Source: Bacillota bacterium (lineage in GTDB: Bacteria > Bacillota > Clostridia > Christensenellales > WQRI01). From it: a stretch of 52,977 bases of DNA. The notes beneath the pieces were generated by a model that had not been told where the DNA came from, made no database searches, and worked only from the letters and a program-made list of their open reading frames with translations. This document shows, in pieces, positions 124 through 50,462 of this stretch. The stretch is from assembly GCA_009786825.1 (NCBI GenBank), contig WQRI01000003.1, positions 1-52,977 on the forward strand, in the 5' to 3' direction. Position 1 is the first letter of the stretch. Each line of letters starts with the position of its first letter. The translations under genes and the position numbers were made by a program.

Positions 124-366
124 ATTCAGAATTATGAATTCAGAATTATGAATTATTTCACCCGCTACCGCGGGAAAGATTTACGTGAGTACTTATGTAA
201 TTGTCACCCTGAACGTAGTGAAGGGTCTAGCGAAGCGAAAACACGGCTACGCCTAGATTCTTCGCTTCGCTCAGAATGACACTTAAAACAAATCGCTAAC
301 TGTTCAAACGTAAAGCATTTAATGGGTTGCAACCATTATTCATTATTCAATATTCATTATTCATTC
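124..366 (+). repeat. F1 heptad-arm hairpin element, copy A (composite, carries an F4 module)
   Basis: Left arm ATTCAGAATTATGAATTCAGAATTATGAATTAT, core TTCACCCGCTACCGCGGGAAAG, then AACTGTTCAAACG, right arm CCATTATTCATTATTCAATATTCATTATTCATTC. Confidence 0.8.
202..281 (+). repeat. F4 nested palindromic module (copy 1 of 2)
   Basis: TGTCACCCTGAACGTAGTGAAGGGTCTAGCGAAGCG...CGCCTAGATTCTTCGCTTCGCTCAGAATGACA. Nested inverted repeats TGTCA/TGACA, ACCCT/AGGGT and AGCGAAGCGAA/TTCGCTTCGCT. About 85% identical to 50383-50462. Confidence 0.8.
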
Positions 367-370
367 AACT

Positions 371-405
371 AAAAAAAGTAGTACGGGTTTCCGTACTACT
401 TTTTT
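371..405. terminator. Bidirectional rho-independent terminator
   Basis: A7 run, 9-bp stem GTAGTACGG (378-386) / CCGTACTAC (391-399), loop GTTT, T6 run. Sits at the 3' end of the minus-strand ORF 404-1576. Confidence 0.8.
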
Positions 406-1576
406 AGTTGAGAGATGCTCTGGTTAGTTCTATTAGTCTGCCGTTTTGTTTTGCTGTTTTGACGACTTCGTCGTTTATTATTGTGCCTTTGGTTATTACT
501 AGGCGGCCGCCTGTGTTGTAGATATCTTTATTGACTTGGCGGCGAAGTAAGAATTTAAACTCGCCTAGAATGCGTGGTTGTTGTATTGTTGTGCGTGGGG
601 ATAGGTTTGCGTCGAATATGATTGCGTTTGTGCGAATGTTGCGCTCTGGTACGGATATTCTTGTTGTTGGGCTTTTTGTTATGCTTGATAGGTGTTGTGG
701 GTAAGACGATGGGGTTAGTGCGGGGCGCGGGGCGGGCATAGGTATAAATACTGGAAGTGGTTGCTGAGTTTCAGTTTGTTCTGTGAAAGGTTGCTCTATC
801 GGCTGTGGTTGATGTATAATGTTTGGGGTAGGTTGTGGTTGTATAAAAGTAGGTTCAGGGATATGCTGTGGTGTTGGGTGAATAGGTTGTGGTTGTATAA
901 AAGTAGGCTCTGGGGTAGGCTCGATTTCTTTGTGTATAATAATAGGTTGTGGTTGTGGGGTAGGTACAGGTGTAGGTATAGGTTCGGTAGGAACGATAGG
1001 CGGGGTAGGTATAATAGGCTCAGTAGGTATAACGGGCGCAACAACAGCGATAGGTTTTGGTGGGGCTTTGGGTTTCTTTTTTTGCGGTGCGGCTTCTCTT
1101 AGAATAACGGCATCGGTTGCGCCTATTATGCGCTCTTTGCTGTAGTTTGTGCGCTTGCGCTCTAGCGTTACTTCTATGCGCTCTGTTAGTCTGTTTTCTA
1201 AATCTATATCTGAGATAGCCCCTAGATATTTGCCAAGCGAGTTAAACACGCTTAGGTTGTAAGGCGACACTAAGTTTTCTGGCACGGGCTTTAGTGGGCG
1301 CAAGGTTTTTATAACAACCGCGTCTGTGCCTATGTTGTGTATGCTGGACATACGAAGTAGGGCGTATCCACTTTTTAGTTGCTTGCAAGCCTCGAACATC
1401 TCGCCCAAAAGGTTTTTTAAGTTAGAGAGATATTCTTCTTTAATTTCGATAAGCATACTGCTTGTTCGCCTTAGTTTTTTGTCAAATAAAAAATCTGCCA
1501 CTACGCCAATAGTGCCACTAACATTAAGTGCGATTACGGGTTTGTTAATGTAATCTTTTAGTTTGATTTTTTCCAT
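404..1576 (-). CDS. Hypothetical protein: PRC-barrel-like N-terminal modules, about 130-aa proline-rich spacer, small C-terminal domain
   Basis: 390-aa ORF. N-terminus KDYINKPVIALNVSGTIGVVADFLFDKKLRR resembles PRC-barrel proteins. The centre is P/T/Q/I-rich, with PEPTFIQPQP occurring twice. The C-terminus GRLVITKGTIINDEVVKTAKQNGRLIELT is typical of clostridial PRC-barrel proteins. Confidence 0.55.
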   Translation of the reverse strand: MEKIKLKDYINKPVIALNVSGTIGVVADFLFDKKLRRTSSMLIEIKEEYLSNLKNLLGEMFEACKQLKSGYALLRMSSIHNIGTDAVVIKTLRPLKPVPENLVSPYNLSVFNSLGKYLGAISDIDLENRLTERIEVTLERKRTNYSKERIIGATDAVILREAAPQKKKPKAPPKPIAVVAPVIPTEPIIPTPPIVPTEPIPTPVPTPQPQPIIIHKEIEPTPEPTFIQPQPIHPTPQHIPEPTFIQPQPTPNIIHQPQPIEQPFTEQTETQQPLPVFIPMPAPRPALTPSSYPQHLSSITKSPTTRISVPERNIRTNAIIFDANLSPRTTIQQPRILGEFKFLLRRQVNKDIYNTGGRLVITKGTIINDEVVKTAKQNGRLIELTRASLN

Positions 1577-1766
1577 AATTTTTTTCTCAATGCAGAATAT
1601 TTTAAGGAAGTTAGTTTTTAAGCGCTTCCTTTAATTTCGGCAATACTTTTTCCATAATATGCTATGTACTATTGTATGTGTGACAAAATTTTTATAGCAC
1701 AGATAATTTTGTCGCATATTGAAGTATAAGTTTTTAAGTTTTTTTCACTTAGAATGCTTTTATTAG

Positions 1767-1795
1767 TTGAAAAAAAATGTGTGTTGTGTTACAAT
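1767..1795 (+). promoter_or_regulatory. Sigma-A type promoter with extended -10, positioned for a leaderless transcript
   Basis: TTGAAA (1767-1772), 17-nt spacer, TGT-TACAAT (-10 at 1790-1795). The ATG at 1802 lies 7 nt after the -10. Confidence 0.55.
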
Positions 1796-1801
1796 AGAGA
1801 T

Positions 1802-2620
1802 ATGGGAAAAGTTATAAAAGAATTTGTTAAGTTTGAGACGCACCTACACACCAAAGAAACTTTTGCGTGTGCTAAGGTGGCGGCGGAAGAAATTCCGCAA
1901 ATTTACAAAAAACTTGGGTTTGACGGCATTGTTGTTACAAACCATTTTATGCAAAAAGTTTTAGACCAATACGAAGTGTGTTGCGCCGAGCCGAGCCTTA
2001 AACTACATACTGCGTATGAGGGGCGCGAGATTAGCCTTAACACAAACGAATGCTGTTGGCATAAAAAAGTAGACGGCTATTTGCAAGGCTTTAAAAATAT
2101 GCAAAAGGCGGGCAAGAAGGCAGGCGTTAAGATTTTTTTCGGGCTAGAACTTGGGCTTTTAGAGTACGACAAACTAGATGGTAAAGACCCAGCGATAGAA
2201 CTTTTAGTATACGGCGTGGAAGCGAAAGATTTATACGACACAGTAAATTTTCACGCGCTGAGCCACGCGAGGCTTTTTGAGATTGCAAACCAAAAGGGTT
2301 GGCTTATTTATCAAGCCCACCCAGCAAGAAAAGTTTCTAAGTATGCAGACCCAAAACTTTTGCACGGGGCAGAAGTTTGGAATGCAAACCCGCGCCACTA
2401 TAACTTTAACGACGAGGCGCTTGGTTGGGTGAGTAACCTAAACTTAAAAGAGGGGTTTAATTTAAAAAAGTTATCGGGTTCTGATTTTCATAGAGAGTGT
2501 ACGGCGGGCAGGGCTGGCATTATGGTTCCGAAAGGCTTAAAGAATATACAGCAACTAGTAGAGTTTTTACGCCACAACGACCCGGGGCTTATAATGGGCG
2601 ATTTACATAGGATTTATTAG
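1802..2620 (+). CDS. PHP-domain metal-dependent phosphoesterase (paralog 1)
   Basis: FETHLHTKE...GFDGIVVTNHF...LIYQAHPAR...GSDFH motifs. The start was moved from the ORF-track 1754 to ATG 1802 because the promoter lies inside the upstream part of the track ORF. Confidence 0.75.
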   Translation: MGKVIKEFVKFETHLHTKETFACAKVAAEEIPQIYKKLGFDGIVVTNHFMQKVLDQYEVCCAEPSLKLHTAYEGREISLNTNECCWHKKVDGYLQGFKNMQKAGKKAGVKIFFGLELGLLEYDKLDGKDPAIELLVYGVEAKDLYDTVNFHALSHARLFEIANQKGWLIYQAHPARKVSKYADPKLLHGAEVWNANPRHYNFNDEALGWVSNLNLKEGFNLKKLSGSDFHRECTAGRAGIMVPKGLKNIQQLVEFLRHNDPGLIMGDLHRIY

Positions 2621-3812: not shown

Positions 3813-3970
3813 GGCGGGTGTTGGGTATTGCTAAATAATTTAGGTTATTACTAAAATCGCTACAAATACTACGCCCATTAATCGTTATATTAGTGTAGGG
3901 GTTTTAAGTGCGGTTTAGTGCTGATAAATTCCTACAAACTAAATTCACAAAAAATAAGGAGAGAAGTATT

Positions 3971-4678
3971 TTGATTAAAATGCAAAATGTGTCTAAGCGG
4001 TTTGGCGATAAACTTGTTTTAGACGATGTTAACTTAGAAGTTCCTGTTGGTCGAATATTTGGTCTGTTAGGACCATCAGGCTCTGGAAAAACAACAATCA
4101 TAAATATTTTAGCAAAGCAAATTCCGGCTTGTGTAGGGACTTCTAGCGTAGAGGCTAAGCCATTTGAAGTTGGTTTGATGCTAGATGATGATGGGTTGTA
4201 TGAGAGAATTTCTGTAAAGCACAACCTAGAGTTGTTTGCACGAATTTATGGTTTAGACAAAACGGCGGCGGAACAGACCCTTAGGGGTGTTGGTCTTTTT
4301 GAAGAAAGAGACAAGCCGGTGTTAAAATTATCTAGGGGAATGAAACAGCGTTTGGCGCTGTCGCGTGCAATTGTGCATAAGCCAAAGGTTCTGTTTTTAG
4401 ACGAGCCAACAGCAAACCTAGACCCTAACACAGCGCGCGGTATACACGGGCTTATACTTGGGCTTAGAGAGCGCGGCACAACAGTTTTTTTAACAACTCA
4501 CAATATGCAAGAGGCGGTAAACCTTTGCGATGAGATTGCGCTTTTATACAAGGGCAAAATAATAGAAAGCGGCACTCCAGAGGGCGTTTGTCAAAAATAT
4601 AACTCTTATAAAACTATACCAGACTTAGAAAGCGTTTTTATCAGGCTAACCGAGCAAGCGGCGGGAGGTGCAGTATGA
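3971..4678 (+). CDS. ABC transporter ATP-binding protein
   Basis: Walker A GPSGSGKTT, signature LSRGMKQR, Walker B LFLDEPT. SD AAGGAGA at 3955-3961 favours TTG 3971 (MIKMQNVSKRFG). ATG 3980 is the alternative. Confidence 0.85.
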   Translation: MIKMQNVSKRFGDKLVLDDVNLEVPVGRIFGLLGPSGSGKTTIINILAKQIPACVGTSSVEAKPFEVGLMLDDDGLYERISVKHNLELFARIYGLDKTAAEQTLRGVGLFEERDKPVLKLSRGMKQRLALSRAIVHKPKVLFLDEPTANLDPNTARGIHGLILGLRERGTTVFLTTHNMQEAVNLCDEIALLYKGKIIESGTPEGVCQKYNSYKTIPDLESVFIRLTEQAAGGAV

Positions 4679-5424
4679 GAATAGTTTCAGCATTATTTTT
4701 AAACAACTTTCGCGACTTGCTTAAAACACCTACGCTTTTAATAAGTTTACTTATGTTTCCGGCAATAGCAGTTATAATGGCAATGTTCTTGCCTGTGCCT
4801 GAATATGGCGAAGAAAACTATTTAGAAGGGCTTACTGCCGGGCTTTTAGCGGCGAGTATGTTTGCGCCGATGTTTGTTGCTATGGGACCAATCAACACAG
4901 CCTCTAATAGCATAGCGGAAGATATAGAAAAGAAGCGCTTACGCTTTTTGATTATGGCAGGGGTAAATGCCGGGCATTATTTGGCGGCTATAATACTTTT
5001 TGTTATGGCAACATCTATACCGCCGATTATTGTTTTTGGGCTTATTGCACAGTTAAGTGTGTTTGGCTTTTCGGTGTTTTTTGGGGTTATGTTGGTGTCT
5101 ACGCTTGCGGCTACTGTTTTGGGTGCTATGGTTGGTATACTGTCTAAGAGTTTGCAACAAGCGGGGTCTATTAGCATAATGGCTATGATGTTTTTTGGTT
5201 TTATACCGATGTTTGTACCAATGATGGATATAGATGCGCTGAGCAACATAGCACAGTTTTTGTTTACGTATCAACTAAGGGAAGTTATGTTTTACGAATT
5301 AGTAGATGATGTAAATTTACTAAGGGCTATCGGAATAATTTTAGCAAATTTTGCTGTGTTTATAGCATTGTTTGCATATGTATATAGAAAGAGAGGCTTA
5401 AAGGGCAAACTGAGTGAAGAGTAA
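4675..5424 (+). CDS. ABC-2 type transporter permease
   Basis: 249-aa polytopic hydrophobic protein. Its ATG overlaps the ATPase stop (ATGA at 4675-4678). Confidence 0.75.
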   Translation: MRIVSALFLNNFRDLLKTPTLLISLLMFPAIAVIMAMFLPVPEYGEENYLEGLTAGLLAASMFAPMFVAMGPINTASNSIAEDIEKKRLRFLIMAGVNAGHYLAAIILFVMATSIPPIIVFGLIAQLSVFGFSVFFGVMLVSTLAATVLGAMVGILSKSLQQAGSISIMAMMFFGFIPMFVPMMDIDALSNIAQFLFTYQLREVMFYELVDDVNLLRAIGIILANFAVFIALFAYVYRKRGLKGKLSEE

Positions 5425-5426
5425 AC

Positions 5427-5585
5427 AATTTTAAATTTTAAATTTTTAATGTTAAATGTTTTCACCGCTAGCGCGGGCAAGATTACGTTTTGCAAATTGC
5501 GAGAATGTGTAACTTGTGGCTGTTAAAAAGTTTTGTCTATTACGAGTTTAATAATTTAACATTTAAAATTTAAAATTTAACATTA
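5427..5585 (+). repeat. F1 element copy C (forward)
   Basis: Arm AATTTTAAATTTTAAATTTTTAATGTTAAATG, TTTTCACCGCTAGCGCGGGCAAG, TTTGCAAAT, GCTGTTAAAAAG, CGAGTTTAA, right arm AATTTAACATTTAAAATTTAAAATTTAACATT. Confidence 0.9.
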
Positions 5586-5592
5586 AAATAAT

Positions 5593-6528
5593 ATGTTACA
5601 TAAATCTATTACAACCCTTGTGGGAAATACACCGCTTATAGAACTTGTTAATTATAACAAGGCTAATGGTTTGGGCTGTAAAATTATCGGTAAGTTAGAG
5701 AGTTTTAACCCAGCGGGCAGCGTTAAGGATAGAATTGCCCTTAATATGATTTTGGAAGCAGAGCGCGCGGGCTTGTTAAAGGCAGATAGTACTATTGTAG
5801 AGCCAACAAGTGGCAACACGGGGATTGGGCTTGCTAGTATTGCAGCGTCGCGGGGCTATAAAGTTATACTTACAATGCCCTCAAGTATGAGCAAAGAGAG
5901 GGTGCAATTGTTTAAAGCATACGGCGCGGAAGTTGTTTTAACCGAGGGCGCTTTGGGTATGAAGGGCGCAATTGCTAAGGCAGAGCAAATTGCTGCCGAA
6001 ACCAAAAATTCTTTTATGCCAAAACAGTTTGATAATGCGGCTAACCCTGCCGTTCATTTCGCAACTACAGGTCCAGAGATTTGGAAAGACACGGGTGGTG
6101 CTATAGATATTTTTGTAAGTGGCGTTGGCACGGGCGGAACAATTACGGGGGCGGGCAGTTTTTTAAAGTCTAAAAACCCTAGTCTTAAAATTGTTGCGGT
6201 AGAGCCTTTCGACAGCCCGGTTTTGTCTAAAGGCGTTGCTGCGCCACACAAAATACAAGGCATAGGGGCGGGATTTGTTCCAAGTATATTAAACACAGAA
6301 ATCTACGACGATATTATAACAGTTACAACAGAAAACGCAACACTCACTTCACGCGCCCTTGCAAAACTAGAGGGCTTACTTATGGGGATATCCTCAGGCG
6401 CTGCGCTTTTTGCAGCAACCCAGTTAGCAAAAAAACAAGAGAACAAAAACAAAACCATAGTAGTAATACTGCCCGACACGGGCGAGCGATATTTATCGAC
6501 AGAGTTGTTTTGCGAAGCAAAACAATGA
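5593..6528 (+). CDS. cysK: Cysteine synthase A (O-acetylserine sulfhydrylase)
   Basis: GNTPLIEL...[16 protein letters not shown]...[10 protein letters not shown]...[10 protein letters not shown] motifs, 311 aa. Confidence 0.9.
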
Positions 6529-6529
6529 T

Positions 6530-6679
6530 AAATGTTAAATTTTAAATGTTAAATGTTTTCACCGCTATCGCGTACAAAATCTATTTGCAAATTGCTTGCA
6601 AGCAAAAATTGCGACTGTTCAAAAGTTGTGGATTTTATGAATTCAGACATTTAACATTTAAAATTTACAATTTAACATT
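6530..6679 (+). repeat. F1 element copy D (forward)
   Basis: AAATGTTAAATTTTAAATGTTAAATG, TTTTCACCGCTATCGCGTACAAAAT, ATTTGCAAAT, ACTGTTCAAAAG, ATGAATTCAGA, CATTTAACATTTAAAATTTACAATTTAACATT. Confidence 0.9.
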
Positions 6680-6695
6680 ACCAAAAGGAGATTTT

Positions 6696-7361
6696 ATGGA
6701 AAATTTTTTAGAAAGACGTCAAGGTGTAGAAGACTTGCTTAGTTGTTTATTACGAGAGCCGTTCAGCGAGACTGAAGCAAAAGTTTTGCTAAAGTTTGGT
6801 ATTGCAAAAAATATAGACAACAGCAAGTTAGAAGAATTTCTAAGTGCGCTAGGCGAGACAAAACAAAGCATAAAAAAAGACCAGCAGTTTTTGTATGATA
6901 ACGACCCGTCCGTTACGGGCGTAGACCAAATTGCAAGTTTTACAAGTTTTTTTGCAGTAGCCGCTTACAGAATAGCGCACATTTTTCCGTGCGAAAAAAT
7001 TGCAAGGCAAATCTCTGAGTTTGCAAAATCTCTTACGGGGGTAGATATTCACCCAAAAGCAAAAATAGGCGTACCCTTTGCGGTAGACCACGGCGTAGGC
7101 ACAGTTATAGGTGAGACTGCCGTTATAGGCGATAGTTCTATGCTATACCACGGCGTAACCCTAGGCGCAAAGCATCTAAAAGAGCGCGAGCAAGTAGGGG
7201 AAGACCGCCACCCAAAACTAGGCAACAAAGTAATAGTATACTCTAACACAACAATACTAGGCAACATAAACGTACCCGACGGGCTAATCATAGGCGCAAA
7301 CAAATTCATAAAAAGCCAACAAGAAATAGATGAACTACAATCTAAATTCGGAAGCAGGTAG
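6696..7361 (+). CDS. cysE: Serine O-acetyltransferase
   Basis: Hexapeptide-repeat region HPKAKIGVPFAVDHGVGTVIGETAVIGDSSMLYHGVTLGA...HPKLGNKVIVYSNTTILGN. SD AAGGAG at 6685-6690. The first 50 aa of the track ORF are translation of F1 copy D. Confidence 0.85.
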   Translation: MENFLERRQGVEDLLSCLLREPFSETEAKVLLKFGIAKNIDNSKLEEFLSALGETKQSIKKDQQFLYDNDPSVTGVDQIASFTSFFAVAAYRIAHIFPCEKIARQISEFAKSLTGVDIHPKAKIGVPFAVDHGVGTVIGETAVIGDSSMLYHGVTLGAKHLKEREQVGEDRHPKLGNKVIVYSNTTILGNINVPDGLIIGANKFIKSQQEIDELQSKFGSR

Positions 7362-7364
7362 GTG

Positions 7365-7446
7365 TGCAAGCCACCACTTAAATGCTAATCGCGTACCACT
7401 TAAAATGTTAAGTGGCACGCTTGCATTCTGCTTTCACATTTTTTTA
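7365..7446 (+). terminator. Nested hairpins after cysE (weak terminator candidate)
   Basis: Outer stem TGCAAGC (7365-7371) / GCTTGCA (7419-7425), inner stem CCACTTAA (7396-7403) / TTAAGTGG (7408-7415). The T-run comes only at 7439-7445, not adjacent to a stem. Confidence 0.3.
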
Positions 7447-7509
7447 ACTAACATTTTTACCTAAGCGAAAAATATTCGGAAAGTTTTTTTAAAAGATGTG
7501 TTCAAACGC

Positions 7510-7538
7510 TTGCGTTTTTTTTGGGTTTGTTATATAAT
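7510..7538 (+). promoter_or_regulatory. Candidate promoter of the S10 operon
   Basis: TTGCGT (7510-7515), 17-nt spacer, TATAAT (7533-7538), with an A/T-rich upstream region. Followed by the hairpin AAGACTGT-TTGT-ACAGTCTT and an approximately 290-nt leader. Confidence 0.5.
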
Positions 7539-7836
7539 AATAAGACTGTTTGTACAGTCTTATTTGTTCAAGTTGCGCGACACACACGGGCGAGTGTAAG
7601 TTCGCTTGATACGAAAAAATTTCTTGCGCGCGTTTTGTTCCAAAACGCTAATGCCGAAATTTTTTGTATCTGCGCTCACACGCTTCAAATACCTTAAATC
7701 TGTAAGGGTGAGTTTTGGGGCTTTGTGGCTTTTGGTAGTTTGGCGCTTGCGTTTGCGCTTGGTAGGATTTCGTATAGGCAATATTAAAAATTAAAGTAAT
7801 TCACATTTAGATATATAGTAAACAGGAGTATTTAGA

Positions 7837-8154
7837 ATGGCACAAATTATGCGTGTAAAATTAAGGGCTTACGACCACAGCGTTTTAGACTTGGCTGCTA
7901 AAAGGTTAGTTGATACTGCTAAAAGGGCAGGCGCTAAGGTTACTGGTCCTATTCCTATCCCAACGGACGTAGAGAAAATTACTATTATAAGGGCGACTCA
8001 TAAGTATAAAGATAGCAGAGAGCAGTTTGAAAAGCGTACGCACAAAAGGCTTGTAGATATCTTTAACCCGTCGCCAAAAATAGTAGACAGTCTGACAAAA
8101 CTAGACTTGCCAGCGGGTGTAGATGTTAATATAAAGTTGCGCTCTATGAAGTAG
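7837..8154 (+). CDS. rpsJ: 30S ribosomal protein S10 (uS10)
   Basis: [13 protein letters not shown]...GPIPIPT...[29 protein letters not shown] lies upstream. Confidence 0.97.
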
Positions 8155-42268: not shown

Positions 42269-42271
42269 TTC

Positions 42272-43020: not shown

Positions 43021-43051
43021 AAATGCTTAGTGAATGAGTATTGCTTAGTGT

Positions 43052-43129
43052 AAAAAACAAATATTTTTGGTGTTAGTGCAAAAAATAAATATTTTGGTGT
43101 TAGTGCAAAAATAGGTATTTTTGGTAGAC
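43052..43129 (+). repeat. Tandem direct repeat of about 27 bp, 2.8 units
   Basis: AAAAAACAAATATTTTTGGTGTTAGTGC / AAAAAATAAATATTTTGGTGTTAGTGC / AAAAATAGGTATTTTTGGTAGAC. Confidence 0.8.
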
Positions 43130-43226
43130 TAAGTTTTAAGGGCTAGGGGCAGTTTAACGGTAACACTTAAATTATAGAGAGCAAAAAGTTAATGCAAATT
43201 TTTAGAGTTTGCACGAGAGTAACAAA

Positions 43227-43808
43227 ATGGGTAAAAAAGAAATTATTTCTAAAATTTTAGAAACTGCTAAGGCAGAAGCAGACCTTCTTTTGTCGGAGGC
43301 ACAAGCAGAAGCAGAAGCGCTTATAGGTTCGGCTCAAGCTATGGCAGACAGAAGTTATAAAGATGCTTTGCAACAAGCCGAGGCAGAAGTTAGGGCAATT
43401 AAAGAAAGGCAAGAGGCATCTAGCAAAAATGCAACTCGTGATGTTTATGTAAATGCGCAAAACGAGGTTTTAGAAATTGCGTTTTCTAAAGCGCGCGAGG
43501 CTTTTGCAAAGATGAAAGACGCAGACTATAAAAAATTGTTTGAGACACTTATAATATCAGTTGCGGACGATGGCGACGAGGTTGTTGTATCTAAAAAAGA
43601 TGAGAAAGTGTTTACGCAAGCTTTTATAGATGGTGCTGCTAAAAAGGCTGGTAAGAAGTTAAAAATAGCAAAGCATAAAAATGAATTGCAGTCTGGGCTT
43701 TTATTAACGGGCAAAAGGGCAGACAAAATTATAACAATAGAAGCACTTGTTGCAAACACGCGCGTAGATATAGAGCCAAGTGTTGTAGCGCAACTAATTA
43801 ATGCATAA
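43227..43808 (+). CDS. ntpE: V-type ATPase subunit E
   Basis: Charged helical N-terminus ISKILETAKAEADLLLSEAQAEAEALIGSAQ. Size and position match NtpE. ATG 43227 is preferred over TTG 43209. Confidence 0.8.
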   Translation: MGKKEIISKILETAKAEADLLLSEAQAEAEALIGSAQAMADRSYKDALQQAEAEVRAIKERQEASSKNATRDVYVNAQNEVLEIAFSKAREAFAKMKDADYKKLFETLIISVADDGDEVVVSKKDEKVFTQAFIDGAAKKAGKKLKIAKHKNELQSGLLLTGKRADKIITIEALVANTRVDIEPSVVAQLINA

Positions 43809-43820
43809 ATGCATTAATTA

Positions 43821-43979
43821 GATTGAACATTGAACACTGAACATTGAATAATTGTTAAATACGATAAACACAAAAGCGTTTTAACAGTTGTAACTTGGTT
43901 TTGCTGGAATTTTTGAAATGTAATATTTCTTGCGAAGCAAGGTGAAACAATTGTTCATTGTTAATTGTTCAGTGTTCAG
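43821..43979 (-). repeat. F1 element copy W (reverse)
   Basis: Arm GATTGAACATTGAACACTGAACATTGAATAATTG ... TTTCTTGCGAAGCAAGGTGAAAC (hairpin CTTGC-GAA-GCAAG), arm AATTGTTCATTGTTAATTGTTCAGTGTTCAG. Confidence 0.85.
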
Positions 43980-44004
43980 TTAAAAAAACGGAGTTTTTTT
44001 AGAT

Positions 44005-44991
44005 ATGGGAAATTTATTTGCGAATGGTAGAATTGTTGTTATCAGAAACAACTTAATGTCGGCAGAGGCTATAAACAGACTTGCTAAGGCTGAGAATATG
44101 TCTGTTGCTTTATCTATGCTAACGGACGCGGGCTACAACGCAGAAGCGCTTAAGGCGGGCGACTTCGAAAAAGCAATAAGGCTAGAGCAAGCTAAGACAA
44201 TAGAGGTTTTTGAGAGCGTAGCAACAAATTCTAGCGTGCGACGGGTTTTTCTATCTAAACTAAACTATCACAACGCTAAGGCGCTTTTAAAAATAAAGTT
44301 TGCGGGCATTAAAGAAGGCGACTTAATGCTTTATGATGGTAGCGACATTAGTGTTGCCGAGTTAAACAGATTTATAGAGCAAGGGGACGGCAATTTCGAC
44401 ACTAACTTGCACGCGGCTATACGCGAGGTTATAGACACTAGCAAAAGAGAAAGCCCAAGGGATATAGATTTAACAATAGACGGCGCACTTTTCGAAGTTA
44501 TTAAAAACGAGATAAGGGGTGTTAAGTGTACTACGCTTGCAACTTACGTGAAGTCTGAGATAGACTTTATAAACATACTATCCGTTTTAAGAACAAAGCC
44601 TTTAAACTTTTCGGTAGACCAACTTGCTTCGTCTTTAATTAGTGGGGGCAACATACCTTTAACTACTTTGATAATGGCTTACGCAAACGAGCAACCTTTA
44701 GAGTTTTTAAACTCTATAAGGCTGTACTACCCGCAAGTTATTGCAGATGTTATAGATGGTAGCGCGCAAGGTAGTGTGGGTGATATCACACTTATTCTAG
44801 AAAGAGAAGCAGACAACTATTTGCTAAAACTGTTTGATGAAAAGAAAAACAACTTTACGGGAATACAACCCTACATCGCATACTATCTATCTAAACTAAA
44901 CGAGATAAGGGTTGTAAAACTAATACTAATAGCAATAAAATACGAGTTGCCACCAGAAGCGTTGGCAAAACGTATGCGCAAAATATTTTAA
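44005..44991 (+). CDS. ntpC: V-type ATPase subunit C (d-type)
   Basis: 328 aa. Position between E and F(G) subunits, and helical composition typical of V-type subunit d/C. Confidence 0.75.
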   Translation: MGNLFANGRIVVIRNNLMSAEAINRLAKAENMSVALSMLTDAGYNAEALKAGDFEKAIRLEQAKTIEVFESVATNSSVRRVFLSKLNYHNAKALLKIKFAGIKEGDLMLYDGSDISVAELNRFIEQGDGNFDTNLHAAIREVIDTSKRESPRDIDLTIDGALFEVIKNEIRGVKCTTLATYVKSEIDFINILSVLRTKPLNFSVDQLASSLISGGNIPLTTLIMAYANEQPLEFLNSIRLYYPQVIADVIDGSAQGSVGDITLILEREADNYLLKLFDEKKNNFTGIQPYIAYYLSKLNEIRVVKLILIAIKYELPPEALAKRMRKIF

Positions 44992-44993
44992 TT

Positions 44994-45147
44994 AATGTTA
45001 AATTTTAAATTTTTAATGGTAAATGTTTTCACCTGCTTCGCAGAAATATTTATTTGCAAGTTGTTCGCAAGTGAAAATTCTGACTGTCAAAAGAAAAAAA
45101 CACAAAGGATAAAACAATTAAAAATTTAACATTTAAAATTTAACATT
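44994..45147 (+). repeat. F1 element copy X (forward)
   Basis: AATGTTAAATTTTAAATTTTTAATGGTAAATG, TTTTCACCTGCTTCGCAGAAAT, ATTTGCAAGT, GACTGTCAAAAG, arm CAATTAAAAATTTAACATTTAAAATTTAACATT. Confidence 0.88.
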
Positions 45148-45161
45148 GCGGAGCGTTATAA

Positions 45162-45488
45162 ATGGCAAAAGGTAAAATAGCAGTAATTGGGGATAAAGAG
45201 AGTATAATTGCTTTTAAGGCAGTTGGTATGGAGACGTTCCCCGTAGAAAAAGATAAAGACGAGATAAGAAAAACTTTGCGCCGCTTAGCAAACGAAGAGT
45301 ACAGCGTTATATTTATAACAGAAGAAGCGTGCGAGGGGCAAGACGAAATTCTAGAGCGCTTTATGGCACAACCTTTCCCATCAATCATACCAATACCAAG
45401 CTCTAACGGCACAATGGGTTTAGGTATGACCAACTTGAAGCGAAATATAGAGAAGGCTATAGGGGCGGACATTCTATTAGGCGAATAA
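45162..45488 (+). CDS. ntpG: V-type ATPase subunit F (NtpG)
   Basis: KIAVIGDKESIIAFKAVGMETFPV......E......L.....Y.VIFITEE is typical of V-type F subunits, 108 aa. Confidence 0.85.
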   Translation: MAKGKIAVIGDKESIIAFKAVGMETFPVEKDKDEIRKTLRRLANEEYSVIFITEEACEGQDEILERFMAQPFPSIIPIPSSNGTMGLGMTNLKRNIEKAIGADILLGE

Positions 45489-45613
45489 TTTAAGCGCTAT
45501 ATGCGGCGTAATACTTCGTTGAATGTTACGGTTTTCTGCGGTCACGTACAATTAGTACGCTCCCTTGAAAATCCGCCATTCGCCTTGTCTTACTTGCATC
45601 TAGCACTTAAATT
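45488..45613 (+). repeat. F2 element copy 7 (short form)
   Basis: Outer IR AATTTAAGC/GCACTTAAATT. The first A is the last base of the ntpG TAA. CTATATGCGGCGTAATACTTCGTT, TTACGGTTTTCTGCGG, hairpin CGTAC-AATTA-GTACG, CTTGTCTTACTTGCATCTAG. Confidence 0.88.
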
Positions 45614-45749
45614 TAGCGTTTAGCATTGCACTTTTAAAGATATAAAAAGGTTTTATATATAAACTACACACAAAATAATTTTTTTAGGGGGTGTGGGGGA
45701 ATTTTTTTCCCAAAAAACTGTCCCCCGCAAAACAAATAAAGAGGAAAAT

Positions 45750-47513
45750 ATGGCTGGTAAAATTGTAAAAGTATCGGGACCATTAGTTGTAGCGTCGGGA
45801 ATGGCAGATGCTAGAATGTACGACGTTGTACAAGTTTCTAAAGAGAGGCTGATTGGCGAGATTATAGAGCTTAGGGGCGATATGGCGTCTATTCAAGTTT
45901 ATGAAGAGACATCGGGAATCGGTCCGGGTGAGCCTGTAGTTTCTACGGGCGCGCCGCTAGAGTTAGAGCTTGGTCCGGGGCTTGTTGAAGGAATTTTCGA
46001 CGGAATACAGCGTCCGCTAACAGAAATTATAAAGTTAAGCGGCGAGCGTATTGCGCGTGGCTTAGAAGTTCATAACCTAGACAGAAATAAAAAATGGGAG
46101 TTTAAAGCAACCGCTAAAGTTAAAGACAAAGTGGCGGCGGGCGATGTTATTGGCGTTGTTCAAGAAACCCCGCTTGTAGAGCATAGGATAATGGTGCCGT
46201 TTGGGGTTGATGGCGAGATTACAGAAATCAAGTCGGGCAACTTCACAATAGTAGATGTTGTTGCAAAAATCAAAACTAAAGACGGCGTACGCGATGTTAT
46301 TATGATGCAAAAGTGGCCTGTTAGGCGTGGCAGACCTTATGCTTCTAAACTTAGCCCAGATATCCCACTTATGACAGGACAACGCAGCATAGATATGTTT
46401 TTCCCAATTGCTAAGGGGGGTGTATCTGCTGTTCCGGGTCCGTTCGGGTCGGGCAAAACAGTTGTTCAGCACCAACTAGCAAAGTGGGCAGATGCCGAGA
46501 TTGTTGTATACGTAGGCTGTGGCGAGCGCGGTAACGAGATGACAGACGTTTTAGTAGAATTCCCAGAACTTGCAGACCCAAAGTCTGGCAGACCACTAAT
46601 GGAGCGCACAGTTTTAGTTGCTAACACATCAGATATGCCCGTTGCGGCGCGCGAGGCTAGCATATACACGGGTATTACAATAGCAGAATATTTTAGAGAT
46701 ATGGGCTACTCTGTTGCTATAATGGCAGACAGTACATCGCGCTGGGCAGAAGCACTTAGAGAAATCTCGGGCAGACTAGAAGAGATGCCGGGTGAAGAGG
46801 GCTACCCTGCTTACTTAGGCTCGCGAATTGCAGAGTACTACGAAAGGGCTGGTCGCGTAAACTGTTTAGGCACACAAGGGCGCGTTGGTGCAATATCGGC
46901 AATCGGTGCAGTATCGCCACCGGGTGGCGACTTAGCAGAGCCAGTATCTCAAGGCACGCTGAGAATAGTAAAAGCATATTGGGGGCTGTCATCATCACTT
47001 TCTTACAAGCGTCACTTCCCAGCAATAGACTGGCTATTATCATACTCGCTTTATGTAGAAACACTAGGCAAGTGGTACGACGAAAACGTTGCGCCTGATT
47101 GGTCGGCTAACAGAAAAGCGGCAATGGCATTACTTCAAGAAGAAGCGAAGTTAGATGAGATTGTAAGGCTTGTAGGTATGGATGCATTATCGCCAAGAGA
47201 TAGATGGAAAATGGAAAGCGCAAAATCGCTAAGGGAAGACTTCTTACAACAAGATGCATACGACAAAGTAGACACTTACGCATCGCCACAAAAAATGATA
47301 ACGCTGCTTCGCATAATAATGAATATGTATAAGTTGGGTAACGACGCTTTAGACGCAAACGTAGAAATTAGAGACCTACTTAAAATAAAAGCGTTCGAGC
47401 AACTAGGTCGGGCAAAGTTTAACCCAGAAAAAGACTTACACATTATAGAAAAAATCGGCACAGATATGGTTGATGAAATTGGCGAATTAATTGCAAAAGG
47501 AGGGCAAGACTAA
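45750..47513 (+). CDS. ntpA: V-type ATPase catalytic subunit A
   Basis: [15 protein letters not shown]....A.MYD.V.V....L.GEII.L.GD.A.IQVYEET.G..PGEPV. P-loop [17 protein letters not shown] at 45739-45744. Confidence 0.96.
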
Positions 47514-48949
47514 TGTTTGTAGAATATAAAACGATTAATGAAAGTGTCGGACCTCTTATGCTTGTAGAGGGTGTTAGGGGCGTTAAGTATAACGAACTTG
47601 TAGAAGTTATTCAAATTGATGGGCGCGTTAGAATGGGCAGAGTTTTAGAAATGAACGAAGATAAGGCGCTTGTTCAGTTGTTCGAGTCTTCTCAAGGGCT
47701 TCAGATTAATACTTCACGCGCTAGGTTTATCGGTAAGTCTCTAACTTTCGATGCTAGCCCAGACATTTTAGGGCGCGTATTCGACGGGCTAGGCAGAACA
47801 AAAGATAGCGGACCACCAGTAGTAGCGCACCAGCGTTTAGACATAAACGGGCTACCAATAAACCCAGCAGCAAGAACATTCCCATCAGACTTTATTCAAA
47901 CAGGCGTATCGGCAATAGATGGCTTAAACACGCTTGTTAGGGGACAAAAACTTCCGGTTTTCTCGGCTTCGGGCTTGCCGCACGCGCAACTTGCTGCACA
48001 AATCGCAAGGCAAGCAAGGGTTTTGAAAGCAGATGAGAGTTTTGCGGTTGTTTTCGCGGCGGTTGGTATAACGTACGAAGAAGCAGATTATTTCGTACAA
48101 AGTTTTAAAGAAACGGGCGCAATAGACAGAACAGTTATGTTTATGAACCTAGCGGACGACCCGGCGGTAGAGCGTATCGCTACACCGCGTATGGCGCTTA
48201 CGGCTGCTGAGTATTTGGCGTTTGAACTTGATATGCACGTACTTGTTATAATAACAGACATCACAAACTATGCGGACGCGCTTCGCGAAGTTTCTGCCGC
48301 TAGAAAAGAAGTTCCGGGCAGGCGTGGTTATCCGGGCTATCTATATACAGACCTAGCATCTATGTATGAGAGAGCAGGTTGTATCAAGGGCAAAAAAGGC
48401 TCTATCACGCAAATACCAATTCTAACAATGCCAGAAGATGATAAGACTCACCCAATTCCAGACTTAACGGGCTATATCACAGAAGGGCAGATAATGCTAG
48501 ACCGCTCACTTAACAAAAAGGGTATATTCCCACCAATAGATGTACTGCCGTCACTCTCACGCTTAAAAGATAAAGGTATGGGCGAGGGCAAAACAAGAGA
48601 AGACCACTCTAGCGTACTAAACCAACTTTTTGCGTGCTATGCGCGTGGTAAAGATGCTAAAGAACTAGCGTCTATACTAGGTGAAGCGGCACTAACAGAT
48701 ATAGACAAAATCTACGCAAAGTTTGCAGAAGAGTTTGAAAAAGTATTTGTAGGGCAAGGCTGGCAAACAAACAGAAATATAGTAGACACGCTAGATATAG
48801 GTTGGAAACTTATGGGTATGCTTCCAAAGTCAGAACTTAAGCGCGCCAAAGCAAACCACATAGAAAAATACTATGTGCCAACTCAAATAGGCGAGGGCGG
48901 CTTAGCAAAAAAGATACCGGGGCAGATTGACAAAAAAGAACAACACTAA
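47513..48949 (+). CDS. ntpB: V-type ATPase subunit B
   Basis: EYKTI..V.GPL..VE.V.GV.Y.ELVE......R.G.VLE...D.A.VQ.FE...G...RGYPGY.YTDLA..YERAG. The ATG overlaps the ntpA TAA by 1 nt. Confidence 0.96.
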
Positions 48950-48952
48950 TAA

Positions 48953-49080
48953 AAATTAATGTCTATATGCGGCATAATACTGCGTTGAGATTTACGTTTT
49001 GTTTCGGTCACGTACAATAAGTACGCTCCCTCACAAATCCGCATCTCGCCTTGTCTTATTTGCATCTAGCCATTAATTTA
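48953..49080 (+). repeat. F2 element copy 8 (short form)
   Basis: Outer IR AAATTAATG(T)/(G)CCATTAATTT, CTATATGCGGCATAATACTGCGTTGAGATTTACG, hairpin CGTAC-AATAA-GTACG, CTTGTCTTATTTGCATCTAG. Confidence 0.85.
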
Positions 49081-49123
49081 AGGGTATCTTAAAACGATTT
49101 TTAAAAAAGCAAAGTGTAATGCA

Positions 49124-49254
49124 TAATTAAGCACTAGAAGCAAGCTAGGCAAGGAAATCTGCGGCTTTGCGAAAGGCGCGTACCACTCGGTACGTAACTT
49201 GAGCAAAACGTAAAGATTGACGAAGCATAGCGAAGTTTATAGGGCTTAATTAAC
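49124..49254 (-). repeat. F2 element copy 9 (reverse orientation)
   Basis: The reverse complement reads GTTAATTAAGCCCTATAAACTTCGCTATGCTTCGTCAA...CGTACC-GAG-TGGTACG...CTTGCCTAGCTTGCTTCTAGTGC. Convergent with copy 8. Confidence 0.85.
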
Positions 49255-49265
49255 TAAGGGATATT

Positions 49266-49946
49266 ATGGCAGAATTACTTAGAGTCAACCCCACAAGAAT
49301 GGAGTTGAAAAGGCTTCAAGCGCGTCACAAAACGGCGGTTAGGGGTCATAAGTTATTAAAAGATAAAGCAGATGAAATGGTAAGGCAGTTTTTATTAATC
49401 ATAAAAAGGTGTCGCGATTTACGTATTGAAGTAGAGCGCGAACTTACAGCAGCCCTTAGACAGTTTAAACTTGCAAGTGCAATATCGCCAACCCAAAGTA
49501 TAGAAACGGCGCTTGCTATGCCGGCGGCTAAGGCTACACTTGCAGTCTCACTAGGCAACATAATGAGCGTTAAAGTACCAATACTACAACTTAATGTAGC
49601 AGATTCTACAGACCTTATCCCGTACAGTTTTTTAGGCATAACGGCAGATTTAGATGCAAGCATAGTTACTATTTCAAAACTTTTAGAAAAAATGGTGTCC
49701 CTTGCGCAACTAGAAAAAACTTGTTCTATGCTAGCAGATGAGATAGAAAAAACACGTCGCCGCGTTAACGCACTAGAACACGTACTTATCCCGCAAATGC
49801 TAAAAACAATAAAATACATCAAAATGAAACTAGGCGAAGATGAGCGGAGCGTAATAGTAAGACTAATGAAAGTTAAATCTATGATACAAAAGCGCGATGA
49901 GCAACTAGCCGCAAAAAAAGCCGAAGCCCAAAAGGGCAACAAGTAA
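49266..49946 (+). CDS. ntpD: V-type ATPase subunit D
   Basis: NPTRMELKRLQARHKTAVRGHKLLKDKADEM......R.NALEHVLIP. is typical of V-type D subunits. Confidence 0.92.
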   Translation: MAELLRVNPTRMELKRLQARHKTAVRGHKLLKDKADEMVRQFLLIIKRCRDLRIEVERELTAALRQFKLASAISPTQSIETALAMPAAKATLAVSLGNIMSVKVPILQLNVADSTDLIPYSFLGITADLDASIVTISKLLEKMVSLAQLEKTCSMLADEIEKTRRRVNALEHVLIPQMLKTIKYIKMKLGEDERSVIVRLMKVKSMIQKRDEQLAAKKAEAQKGNK

Positions 49947-49986
49947 ATCAACAAGTAACTATAGTCCAAACTCAAAAAAGCGTATT

Positions 49987-50016
49987 AAACCACCCATTCG
50001 TTATGGGTGGTTTTTT
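49987..50016 (+). terminator. Rho-independent terminator of the ntp operon
   Basis: AAACCACCCAT-TCGTT-ATGGGTGGTTT, followed by a T-run. Confidence 0.85.
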
Positions 50017-50196
50017 CTAATGACCTAGGATATATCGCCACCTTTTTTATTTTCCAGCACCGCCGTGTCGAATTTTGTCGCCAAAAATAATGTCCAGTCG
50101 CTTAAAAGTAGTATTCAACTAAAACAATAAAATTTGTGTTTAATTTAATACATAAAAGTTTGTTGTTAATATTTGTTAAAAGTTTGTTCATATGCT

Positions 50197-50227
50197 TGAC
50201 TTTTTTTTTTTTTTGATAAAATATACT
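50197..50227 (+). promoter_or_regulatory. Candidate promoter whose spacer is a T13 homopolymer
   Basis: TTGACT (50197-50202), then T-run 50202-50214. Possible -10 sites are TAAAAT (50217-50222, 14-nt spacer) or TATACT (50222-50227, 19-nt spacer). Neither spacing is optimal. Confidence 0.35.
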
Positions 50228-50306
50228 TATACACTTTAACAGAATGTTCATAGGTTTTGCGCGCGAAGTGGCGTATTTGTGGACATAGTGTTAAAACGGA
50301 AACGGT

Positions 50307-50462
50307 AATTAATTGAACAATGAATACTGAACATTGAACAATGGTTACACCCGCTTGCGCGGTAATTAAATCAAAATAAAAGTGTCACCCTGAACGAAGT
50401 GAAGGGTCTAGCGAAGCGGAATTCGGCTACGCCTAGATACTTCGCTTCGCTCAGTATGACAT
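50307..50462 (+). repeat. F1 element copy Y (forward, composite with F4 module, right arm missing)
   Basis: Arm AATTAATTGAACAATGAATACTGAACATTGAACAATG, core GTTACACCCGCTTGCGCGGTAA, then F4 copy 2 at 50383-50462 (GTGTCACCCTGAACGAAGTGAAGGGTCTAGCGAAGCG...TTCGCTTCGCTCAGTATGACAT). Confidence 0.8.

Follow-up and report, generated by a model that had tools for sequence, protein, structure and literature searches.

Bacterial MITEs are A+T-rich elements of less than 200 bp that are co-transcribed and whose transcripts are predicted to contain long stem-loops (PMC2229807). Most of them carry a target-site duplication and a terminal TA; ERIC consists of old copies without a known cognate transposase (PMC2229807). 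When co-transcribed, MITEs can alter the fate of the mRNA, with RNase III involved for Correia and RNase E for ERIC (PMC2229807). Direct arrays of the heptamer TAACTGA occur in Beggiatoaceae, cyanobacteria and Bacteroidetes, usually with 2–6 units (PMC4679880). They lie few nt upstream of start codons, in some cases overlapping the upstream stop codon, are present in r-protein operons and contain stop codons in all frames (PMC4679880). Each is a single direct array of one fixed heptamer, without core or inverted partner; for CspB, binding of one protein per heptamer is cited in the same paper (PMC4679880).

Here we analysed a DNA stretch of 52,977 nucleotides (the window) from an uncultured termite-gut bacterium of a deep-branching, Bacillota-like lineage. 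The analysis confirmed that its ~157-nt repeats with five-heptad arms are a real family without an existing name. The repeats resemble small mobile DNA of a novel and unusual type rather than a folded regulatory RNA. A previous, sequence-only reading had counted 18 full-length copies and about 8 fragments. This is matched by the hits of an nhmmer profile trained on 13 copies: 15 full-length copies of the window are clean (E = 1e-22 to 1e-40), 3 more are interrupted, truncated or divergent, and there are ~9 fragments. A 20-base core pattern occurred 5 times in the window compared to 0.00 times in shuffles. The element length, previously given as 150–200 nt, is 148–170 nt with a mode of 156–159 nt. 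Searching Rfam provided no match even at E<=1, in agreement with the earlier view of an unnamed family, and no close relative was found. The family is not confined to the window but occurs genome-wide in the same organism, with 58 distinct full copies in ~250 kb. Most copies are old: the median pairwise identity is 63%, and values above 90% were seen for two pairs only. Two pairs of neighbouring copies share 96% and 91% identity; here the likeness ends at the element boundaries and the flanks are unrelated.

Each element consists of two inverted 33-nt arms that enclose a ~90-nt core. The 7-nt-periodic arms of ~30 nt described before are indeed made of heptads, but of almost always exactly five, each comprising the shared ARTG and a variable triplet (NNN). 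The 5–6 arm types are distinguished by this 3-nt part, while ARTG/CAYT is kept at 7-nt spacing in all of them, and the element ends are sharp (5'-ARTG...CAYT-3'). T1 arms (AAATGTT/AACATTT) are found in the full copies at 5427–5584 (+, E=5.4e-38), 11895–12053 (+, E=2.6e-36), 12498–12655 (+, E=9e-38) and 25163–25322 (-, E=2.7e-36), as well as at 2654–2810 (-, E=5.6e-37; stem variant CGCGC/GCGCG), 6524–6679 (+, E=3.1e-39; hairpin decayed to 3 bp), 16404–16561 (+, E=1.8e-39; with an additional solo heptad array downstream), 27308–27455 (+, E=9.9e-25; core shortened), 42272–42427 (+, E=2.8e-40; hairpin CCTGC-TTC-GCGGG, a wobble intermediate) and 44994–45147 (+, E=7.3e-30; hairpin CTGC-TTC-GCAG). 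Full copies of other types are a T3 copy (TGAACAA/TTGTTCA) at 43822–43980 (-, E=1.4e-26; hairpin CTTGC-TTC-GCAAG), a T4 copy (GAATAAT/ATTATTC) at 10417–10575 (+, E=6.2e-29; hairpin CTGC-TTC-GCAG) and T5 copies (ATGTACA and AATTACA units) at 11439–11594 (-, E=9.3e-23) and 39569–39723 (-, E=4.5e-24; hairpin CTCGC-TTC-GCGAG). T3 arms are further carried by a copy with divergent core at 32330–32476 (-; in reverse reading, box TTTATG followed by hairpin GGCTTC-TTC-GAAGCC) and by the 5' part of a copy at 50309–50382 (+, E=7.2e-06), comprising left arm, box and hairpin CCGC-TTGC-GCGG.

The right arm had been described as the approximate reverse complement of the left arm of the same copy. This holds for the arm type, which agrees in 54/58 copies, but the mean complementarity is 80% and the remaining 4 copies are chimeras. 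Two chimeras, with mismatched arms, lie in the window: the nhmmer-detected full copy at 15816–15971 (+; T1 left, T2 (ACACTTT) right) and the interrupted copy at 123–365 (+; GAATTCW-type left, T4 right; nhmmer pieces 122–181 and 287–365). The latter is split by an unrelated hairpin, 'family C', at 201–286, which also adjoins the partial copy ending at 50382 (at 50383–50461).

The internal blocks reported previously are present as described, with TTTCACC, TTTGCAAAT, CTGTTCAAAAG and ATGAGTTTAAC as conserved core boxes. A small GC hairpin sits at the junction of left arm and core. Beside the majority stem CCGC/GCGG, seven other perfect stems occur (CCTGC/GCGGG, CCTGC/GCAGG, CCTAC/GTAGG, CTGC/GCAG, CTCGC/GCGAG, CTTGC/GCAAG and GGCTTC/GAAGCC), and 9/23 non-majority copies retain a perfect stem, compared to 1.6 ± 1.2 in shuffles. 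The small hairpin thus undergoes compensatory change, as had been proposed; such structural conservation is expected for a protein recognition element. The hairpin class assorts across arm types. Core similarity barely follows arm type: for 22/54 copies the nearest core neighbour has the same arm type, with 0.33 expected.

All copies in the window are intergenic and nearly all lie between co-oriented genes, as previously noted. Loci with copies are the PHP and ABC/Cys genes, the S10-spc-alpha operon and the V-ATPase operon, but the family is not restricted to these operons and occurs genome-wide. The orientation in the window (12 forward, 5 reverse) was reproduced, and relative to transcription the core orientation is random (25 same, 23 opposite). 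Elements start at a median of 1 nt past the upstream stop codon, and their ends precede the following start codon by a median of 13 nt. In the sampled genome 49/169 tandem (~29%), 3/11 convergent and 0/12 divergent spacers were occupied (divergent versus tandem: p about 0.04). Two further palindromic repeat families occupy the same spacers, indicating that this genome generally tolerates such insertions. The nearest relatives by SecY, of which the closest is only 59% identical, have compact operons without the element and with 10–20-nt spacers at the same junctions.

Like the Correia/NEMIS, RUP and ERIC/IRU MITEs, the element is a non-coding, multi-copy, intergenic and A+T-rich sequence below 200 bp with inverted ends, for which transcripts with long stem-loops are predicted and which is co-transcribed with flanking genes in both orientations (PMC2229807). 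As for ERIC, the copies are old and come without a cognate transposase in the sampled DNA. Different from these MITEs, neither target-site duplications at the copies nor a terminal TA at the element ends were found; the 33-nt arms are built from five tandem heptads, with 5–6 types on one core; interior boxes and covarying hairpin are at least as well kept as the arms; and copies are very dense inside essential operons of a deep-branching, Bacillota-like host. We know of no sequence similarity between the element and these MITEs. REPs are GC-rich hairpins of 20–40 nt, and PATEs have two subterminal hairpins in direct orientation. With REP/BIME-RAYT and the IS200/IS605-derived PATEs the element shares the absence of a target-site duplication, the extragenic position, often 3' of genes, and a structurally kept small GC hairpin as candidate single-strand recognition element. 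It differs in having one hairpin within 157 nt and long A+T-rich inverted arms, and the sampled DNA showed no Y1-transposase gene.

On balance, we favour the view that the repeats are old, lineage-specific, non-coding, MITE-like palindromic mobile DNA of ~157 bp with an architecture not described before. A mobile nature is supported by the uniform multi-copy unit, the sharp copied ends, the presence of both orientations and the equal folding of both strands. Several observations count against it. As noted previously for the window, no transposase or recombinase is encoded there, nor was one found in ~250 kb of other contigs, and the sampled DNA holds no longer segment flanked by an arm pair. 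Absence of target-site duplication and terminal TA as well as the age of the copies have the same bearing. The length of the arms, their sequence within a type (~83%) and the boxes (0.73–0.79) are far better preserved than the variable core segments (0.44–0.47). This suggests that resident copies are under constraint or undergo gene conversion, and it counts against a purely selfish, decaying relic, which should not show such preservation. Finally, both arms of a copy share the heptad type, yet without heptad-by-heptad matching.

A rather unlikely alternative is that the elements are host-selected cis-acting RNAs that punctuate operons, perhaps once mobile DNA whose long mRNA stem is now useful. 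Such RNAs may direct RNase III processing to stable monocistronic units, protect 3' ends or re-couple stop codon and ribosome-binding site, for which Correia/RNase III and ERIC/RNase E are precedents (PMC2229807). The preservation of arms and boxes in old copies while the remaining core drifts, the fixed number of five heptads, the covarying small hairpin and the empty divergent, promoter-containing spacers would agree with this, as does the folding of every non-chimeric copy well below shuffles. However, folding is similar for sense and antisense strand (z-scores of -4.2 and -4.6), and the core orientation is random with respect to transcription. Arm pairing over all copies exceeds that in shuffles (82.3% versus 72.2%). 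The proposed arm covariation holds between types, but it is confined to type-defining heptad positions (~5 events) and absent at copy level. Arms pair better across copies than within their own copy (T1: 0.834 versus 0.808; T2: 0.824 versus 0.797; T5: 0.843 versus 0.797). Among the arm mismatches 245/344 (71%) are transversions, which disrupt pairing on both strands. Enrichment of G.U-compatible mismatches was seen on neither strand (42 versus 57), and RNAalifold yielded no consensus structure (0 pairs). Stemless chimeras persist in the r-protein operon (that at 15816–15971 has lost the long stem, with z about 0), the coding strand lacks a predicted terminator-like site, and the nearest relatives lack the element. 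The idea that the arms are selected as folded RNA was thus not borne out, leaving the earlier interpretation partly supported. An oriented RNA motif accounts less well for the pairing, folding and orientation data than a palindromic, strand-symmetric element at the DNA level that has subfamilies.

Even less probably, the heptad array is the functional part and the palindrome or full element a mere delivery vehicle. The five CAYT+NNN units, placed closely ahead of a ribosome-binding site, would act either as single-strand platform (for Csp- or S1-like proteins, one per heptad) or as outward promoters. Right-type solo arrays precede the uL24 ORF by 10 nt (16581–16608, +, nhmmer), uL18 by 29 nt (22736–22773, +, E=1.1e-05) and V-ATPase subunit I by 23 nt (40200–40239, +, E=6.4e-04); a weak left-type array of 4 heptads adjoins the full copy at 2654 (2616–2643, E=0.31). 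Of the further fragments, a box with palindromic GAATTCW array precedes uL4 by 17 nt (9321–9363, -, nhmmer), a half hairpin with box and arm precedes uL5 by 19 nt (17107–17152, -, E=3.8e-08), and an element right half with GAATTCW array lies upstream of uS14 (20743–20840, +, E=3.1e-05). Those upstream of ORF 29082 and uS11 are a GAATTCW-like left arm with box and half hairpin (28995–29069, +, nhmmer) and a hairpin with box and arm (30888–30950, -, E=1.5e-13), respectively. Most solo arrays are found no more than 30 nt ahead of a start codon, more often in right-arm sense (~9–10 versus ~4), but this bias is weak (~10:4). T1 arms match promoter-like TTAACA-N16-TAACAT/TAAAAT, pointing outward at both ends, and the region contains 51 promoter-like sites compared to 27.7 ± 5.4 in shuffles. 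By sequence inspection, though, promoter-likeness extends to T1, T2 and T5 and not clearly to T3 and T4, A+T-rich repeats of any kind score in promoter scans, and the left arm would transcribe antisense into the upstream gene. The constant ARTG/CAYT spacing next to a variable triplet suits an array function, with the TAACTGA repeats as precedent (PMC4679880). The likeness to these comprises tandem heptamers near start codons, occasional overlap with the upstream stop codon, r-protein operons and stops in all frames; here, though, exactly five units form inverted pairs round a conserved core and the heptamer varies by copy. Core boxes, hairpin and same-type inverted pairing would be left unexplained.

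That the elements are attC-like recombination sites, read as folded single strands and marking gene cassettes, is very improbable: like attC and Vibrio cholerae repeats they are uniform-length imperfect palindromes directly after stops of co-oriented genes, with structure better preserved than sequence and T1 heptads that read as GTTRRRY/RYYYAAC, but both orientations within a single gene array and intervening universal r-protein genes in ancestral order, as in element-free relatives, largely refute this, and the core-site-like motifs, limited to T1, have reversed order and no integrase is found in the window.

Within the favoured reading as MITE-like mobile DNA, the elements would have spread at the DNA level by a strand-symmetric process, mobilised by an enzyme acting in trans. 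This enzyme would probably recognise not the arm sequence but the folded ends, made up of the long stem and, at its base, the box and hairpin. The 54/58 arm-type match, the 4 chimeras and the assortment of hairpin classes suggest that the 5–6 arm types arose from few master lineages and inter-copy recombination, not from copy-by-copy compensation. Copies would persist only where harmless, in the 10–20 nt that ancestrally separated a stop codon from the following Shine-Dalgarno sequence. Once co-transcribed, a copy is expected to fold into an imperfect A-U-rich stem of ~30 bp that loops out the core. The tolerance in essential operons could be explained because this stem would rejoin the stop codon with the next ribosome-binding site. 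The element may also have a function in the host.

Repeat finding, a hand-seeded alignment and an nhmmer profile concurred on the intergenic repeat family of the sequence-only reading (family A) and on the positions of its copies. With the profile we found 15 clean full copies in the window (E = 1e-22 to 1e-40), 3 interrupted, divergent or truncated copies and about 9 fragments. The 20-base core pattern occurs five times in the window, compared to 0.00 times in shuffles. The conserved blocks, the heptad periodicity, the copy-specific heptads and the 12:5 orientation count described earlier were all reproduced.

The element is 148-170 nt long, most commonly 156-159 nt, and has sharp ends (5'-ARTG...CAYT-3') within heterogeneous flanking sequence. 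Its two inverted arms enclose a core, and each arm consists almost always of exactly five heptads (33 nt). Read in a common phase, the heptad is ARTG followed by a variable triplet that sets the arm type: AAATGTT (T1), AAAGTGT/AGAGTGT (T2), TGAACAA (T3), GAATAAT (T4), a mix of AATTACA and ATGTACA (T5) and a palindromic GAATTCW type. The core contains TTTCACC, a GC hairpin, CAAnAT, TTTGCAAAT, (GCAGA)CTGTTCAAAAG and ATGAGTTTAAC. In the boxes the column identity amounts to 0.73-0.79, and in the arms, compared within a type, to about 0.83; the variable core segments reach 0.44-0.47, where 0.29 is expected at random. In a few cases the arms have grown to 7-8 heptads (13934-13986, 3936-3988 and 12228-12273 on the metagenome loci L030, L031 and L047, respectively). 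Since these expansions show that slippage happens, the otherwise constant count of five heptads looks constrained.

Searching with the core pattern yielded 27 genuine loci on long contigs of one metagenome (Ga0209755, JGI24695J34938), which have about 40% GC and no overlap with the window; the element is therefore not peculiar to the ribosomal and V-ATPase operons. In total, 58 distinct full-length copies were counted over about 250 kb of the window and these other loci (L016-L052). Matches to the core pattern in GC-rich genomes and metagenomes all lacked a profile match and are due to chance. A scan of the genome collection with TTTCACCGCTN{1,3}GCGCGGGCAA provided 12 single matches in unrelated GC-rich genomes, which is the chance level, and no profile match, such that the host is absent from the species representatives. 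Scanned viral contigs gave no match.

The window sequence was also assembled independently in ENA ERZ27257340, Logan SRR6219166 and JGI 3300002450, by which an assembly artefact is rejected. All recovered contigs stem from the same few metagenome samples and are 100% identical wherever they overlap one another or the window. The uL2 protein is nearest to proteins of Staphylococcus, Listeria, Bacillus and Enterococcus, and the best homologue of SecY (25982-27304) among 5.8 billion proteins searched, which carries a Clostridia/Firmicutes MAG label, is just 59% identical. This indicates a deep-branching, unsampled Bacillota-like host. Nearly all genes of the window lie on the plus strand. It contains the complete S10-spc-alpha ribosomal operon (7837-34264); the V-type ATPase operon occupies 39736-49946, and the other genes comprise PHP-domain genes, an ABC transporter, CysK/CysE-like genes, a permease, an amidohydrolase, GNAT, RpiB and a Big_2 surface protein. 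From S10 to L17 the window spans 26.4 kb, compared to 16.2-16.7 kb in the nearest relatives. Several ribosomal proteins carry very large, internally repetitive N-terminal extensions rich in Lys, Ala and Glu, with the Pfam domain at the C-terminal end. Compared to relatives with 58-59% SecY identity these are uL5 (17168-20749, 1193 aa vs 202-217 aa), uS17 (14390-15817, 475 aa vs 87-88 aa), uS5 (23228-24511, 427 aa vs about 175 aa) and uL30 (24513-25160, 215 aa vs 63 aa).

It had been proposed that the arms vary between copies yet stay self-complementary. Across all copies this appears to hold: The left and right arm types agree in 54 of 58 copies, and the arms form a terminal inverted repeat with 80.5% complementarity in register. 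In the 52-sequence alignment 82.3% of the arm cells pair; shuffles reach 72.2%, and sliding the partner by 1-3 columns lowers the value to 29-46%. The arm covariation score is 0.276 vs 0.126 in shuffles. The covarying columns are, however, exactly the type-defining heptad positions, such that about five type switches account for the signal. As decisive control we compared, within one arm type, the pairing of own arms with that between arms of different copies (permutation p for own ≥ random). Within a type, own arms paired worse than those of other copies: 0.808 vs 0.834 for T1 (p = 0.9998), 0.797 vs 0.824 for T2 (p = 0.999) and 0.797 vs 0.843 for T5 (p = 0.98). A pairing matrix from the window only gave the same answer. 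Under this control, the further proposal of an RNA structure in the arms, held by compensatory evolution, does not stand.

The left-left and right-right identity of the arms (0.837) equals the left-right cross identity (0.834). Both arms hence use one pool of heptad variants, with a mild avoidance of a perfect palindrome in each element. The small but consistent pairing deficit of own arms within each type (58 full copies) resembles such an avoidance, and counter-selection by SbcCD or RNase III is a possible cause. Among the in-register arm mismatches 245 of 344 are transversions, mainly G/T (ATGT vs ATTT), which are unpaired on either strand; wobble-compatible mismatches were not enriched on either strand (42 vs 57). 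RNAalifold predicted 0 pairs for 52 copies. Chimeric copies with unrelated arms exist, one of them between uS17 and uL14, and fold no better than shuffles. That the heptads follow the gene frame, with the core inverting between fixed arms, is unsupported: viewed in the core frame, forward and reverse copies share identical right-arm patterns, and left-left similarity equals left-right similarity.

Each of the non-chimeric copies can form a long imperfect stem, for which dG averages -40 kcal/mol and pairing covers about 23 of 33 arm positions. The two strands fold equally, as seen from z-scores of -4.2 (sense) and -4.6 (antisense). Structural covariation is real in the small core hairpin only and not in the arms. 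Beside the majority form of the hairpin, CCGC-TAGC-GCGG, seven other perfect stems occur, all with a TTC loop, and CCTGC/GCGGG constitutes a wobble intermediate. A perfect stem of at least 4 bp is kept in 9 of 23 non-majority copies, compared to 1.6 ± 1.2 in shuffles, with none of 2000 shuffles reaching 9; the covariation of the hairpin noted in the sequence-only reading thereby stands. A covariance model of the box plus hairpin (R1) was discarded: It was built on the majority variant, pushed the stems of other variants onto C.G columns and overlooked the bulk of the TTC-loop copies. The "zero covariation" from this model is therefore an artefact, and the direct test of the stems against shuffles was used instead.

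In favour of mobility, the element is a discrete unit with many copies, relatives do not have it, and two other palindromic families (described below) take up the same kind of spacer. It also speaks for mobility that in two neighbouring copy pairs (96% and 91% identical) the similarity ends at the element boundaries, with unrelated flanks. On the other side, the family is old (median pairwise identity between copies 63%), and its arms and boxes are nevertheless far better kept than the remaining core. This suggests constraint on resident copies, gene conversion or long-lived, diverse active masters. Also in favour of mobility, arm type, hairpin class and core similarity are combined in ways that are largely independent of one another which, together with the chimeras, indicates recombination between copies. 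On the other side again, no 3-5-nt direct repeat exceeded shuffled left/right pairings at any offset, and the only 2-nt direct-repeat signal falls inside the element. There is no transposase among the ORFs of the window, and within the about 250 kb of this incomplete genome neither an arm pair flanking a long segment nor a multi-copy ORF was found as autonomous partner. The compact operons of relatives (closest SecY 59%), which do not contain the element, show lineage specificity rather than individual insertion events.

Taken as a class, the repeats are small, non-coding, dispersed and of uniform length (58 copies, 148-170 nt), as are bacterial MITEs. They behave most like the bacterial MITE or ERIC/Correia class, with which they share A+T-richness, the palindromic form, putative co-transcription and the occurrence in both orientations (PMC2229807). 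Two usual features of MITEs are lacking, namely the target-site duplication and the terminal TA. A cognate transposase is not known. As expected for ERIC/IRU-like repeats, old copies of an imperfect palindrome lie in either orientation in intergenic regions that are transcribed, judging from the operon context. Our most likely reading, which we hold as slightly more probable than not, is that the element is an old MITE-like palindrome, recognised via its structure and tolerated in intercistronic gaps. A function for the host is an alternative that we regard as unlikely.

Among the 52 full copies with a placement, the flanking genes are co-directional for 48, convergent for 4 and divergent for none; the corresponding spacer occupancy is 49/169 for tandem, 3/11 for convergent and 0/12 for divergent spacers (p about 0.04). 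The element starts at a median of 1 nt past the upstream stop codon, which is often supplied by the element itself. Its other end falls right before the Shine-Dalgarno sequence, at a median distance of 13 nt from the downstream start. In the nearest relatives the same junctions have spacers of 10-20 nt, and the element is absent. The precise placement follows because a tolerated insertion must land in such an ancestral-type gap. The asymmetric core runs in the direction of transcription in 25 copies and opposite to it in 23, which disfavours the core boxes as an oriented RNA motif. A generic cis-regulatory RNA would have a fixed orientation and compensatory pairing at the level of copies; here the 4-6-bp hairpin alone covaries. 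A role as intrinsic terminator is rejected, since no terminator-like site is predicted on the coding strand within 5000-17500.

Quite unlikely, in our estimate, is a new class of repeat whose arms are not passed on base by base, with a short heptad template from which each arm is independently produced or restored, or with homogenisation between the two arms, and whose resident copies may also be kept by the host as operon punctuation, either as five-heptad protein-binding platforms or as stems re-coupling stop codon and ribosome binding site. Templated or homogenised arms would explain the shared type, the lack of a heptad-by-heptad match and the pairing deficit of own arms. If true, such a mechanism or punctuation role would be undescribed for bacterial interspersed repeats.

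That the heptad arrays themselves have a role appears very unlikely. At both element ends the T1 arms give sigma-70-like matches that face outward (TTAACA-N16-TAACAT/TAAAAT) and arise because three heptads span 21 nt. Such matches lie at 5428-5455(-), 5556-5583(+), 6525-6552(-), 6651-6678(+), 11896-11923(-), 16533-16560(+) and 17142-17169(+), and 5000-17500 holds 51 promoter-like sites, compared to 27.7 ± 5.4 in shuffles. Core-less solo arrays of five heptads occur in the window at 16584-16608, 17118-17149, 22739-22770, 30915-30946 and 40202-40233, and on other contigs at L016 5803, L020 3469, L044 7963 and L038 3060 and 8623. Most of them read in the CAYT (right-arm) sense relative to the gene and have the start codon no more than 30 nt downstream (about 9-10 vs about 4); the sense bias of about 10:4 is not decisive. 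As functional leads the promoter-like matches and the placement of the solo arrays are suggestive only. In the literature on similar elements the one partial analogue found was the TAACTGA heptamer arrays of Beggiatoaceae, which precede start codons and were proposed to bind Csp or S1 (PMC4679880). Five-heptad arms with type switching were not found in this literature. The solo arrays are partly alike, with about 9-10 of about 14 in forward sense and at most 30 nt from the start codon, but the unit is not TAACTGA and most arrays here are inverted pairs around a core.

Homology of the element to the enterobacterial ERIC consensus is unlikely, the host being Bacillota-like. Integron attC sites form same-orientation arrays with 5'-RYYYAAC...GTTRRRY-3' core sites and a nearby intI; they were rejected given the mixed orientation within the operon, the ancestral order of the r-protein genes, a motif order that is reversed, motifs that occur only in T1, and the absence of an integrase from the window. 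CRISPR, tRNA and tmRNA were rejected outright, and the element is also not REP. Rfam gave no match at gathering score over the whole window and none at E ≤ 1 over 15700-17200 (2 full copies, 2 fragments), which within these bounds agrees with the earlier view of an unnamed family. We conclude that the repeats constitute a genuine, new family of unusual architecture.

Two more palindromic repeat families fill the same kind of spacer. Family B, which is unrelated to family A and occupies other spacers of the same operons, starts with AAGYNCTATAWACNGCGYAATACTTCG and has a central GCGTAC...GTACGC hairpin; a 201-nt copy folds at a dG of -61.5. Its copies are found in the window at ~9128-9215, 21035-21235, 22470-22650, 29777-29905, 30671-30780, 33476-33660, 45492-45600, 48958-49085 and 49150-49247(-), and elsewhere at L026 ~9490-9530 and L038 ~8763-8837. 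Family C is a very stable hairpin of ~80 nt (dG -37 to -39) without an Rfam match, seen at 201-286 and 50383-50461 in the window as well as at L044 9211-9293, L049 6054-6136 and L020 5785-5928, with one copy lying within a family A element. Three copies directly precede Big_2 surface-protein genes that are paralogous (window 50475, L044 9265, L049 6464), which suggests that these genes have a leader or regulatory element in common. At 43021-43208, in the spacer upstream of V-ATPase subunit E, about three ~30-nt direct repeats (…AAATATTTTTGGTGTTAGTGCAAAAA…) occur that are unrelated to families A-C.

On the methodological side, strong column-wise covariation can stem wholly from subfamilies; here a within-subfamily control reversed the conclusion. 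Current MITE definitions do not cover five-heptad arms with a conserved ARTG and a type triplet, the lack of a target-site duplication and a junction hairpin conserved in structure; this architecture could indicate a mobilising enzyme that reads structure and not sequence. The host is itself unusual, belonging to a deep-branching lineage with ribosomal proteins of up to 1193 aa. If our reading is right, an essential gene cluster that is normally tightly packed can take up palindromic repeats totalling about 4.5 kb, with one repeat in almost every gap, and remain functional. Such a tolerance of long structured spacers, with an S10-spc-alpha region of 26.4 kb compared to about 16.5 kb in relatives, bears on translational coupling and on operon transcription.
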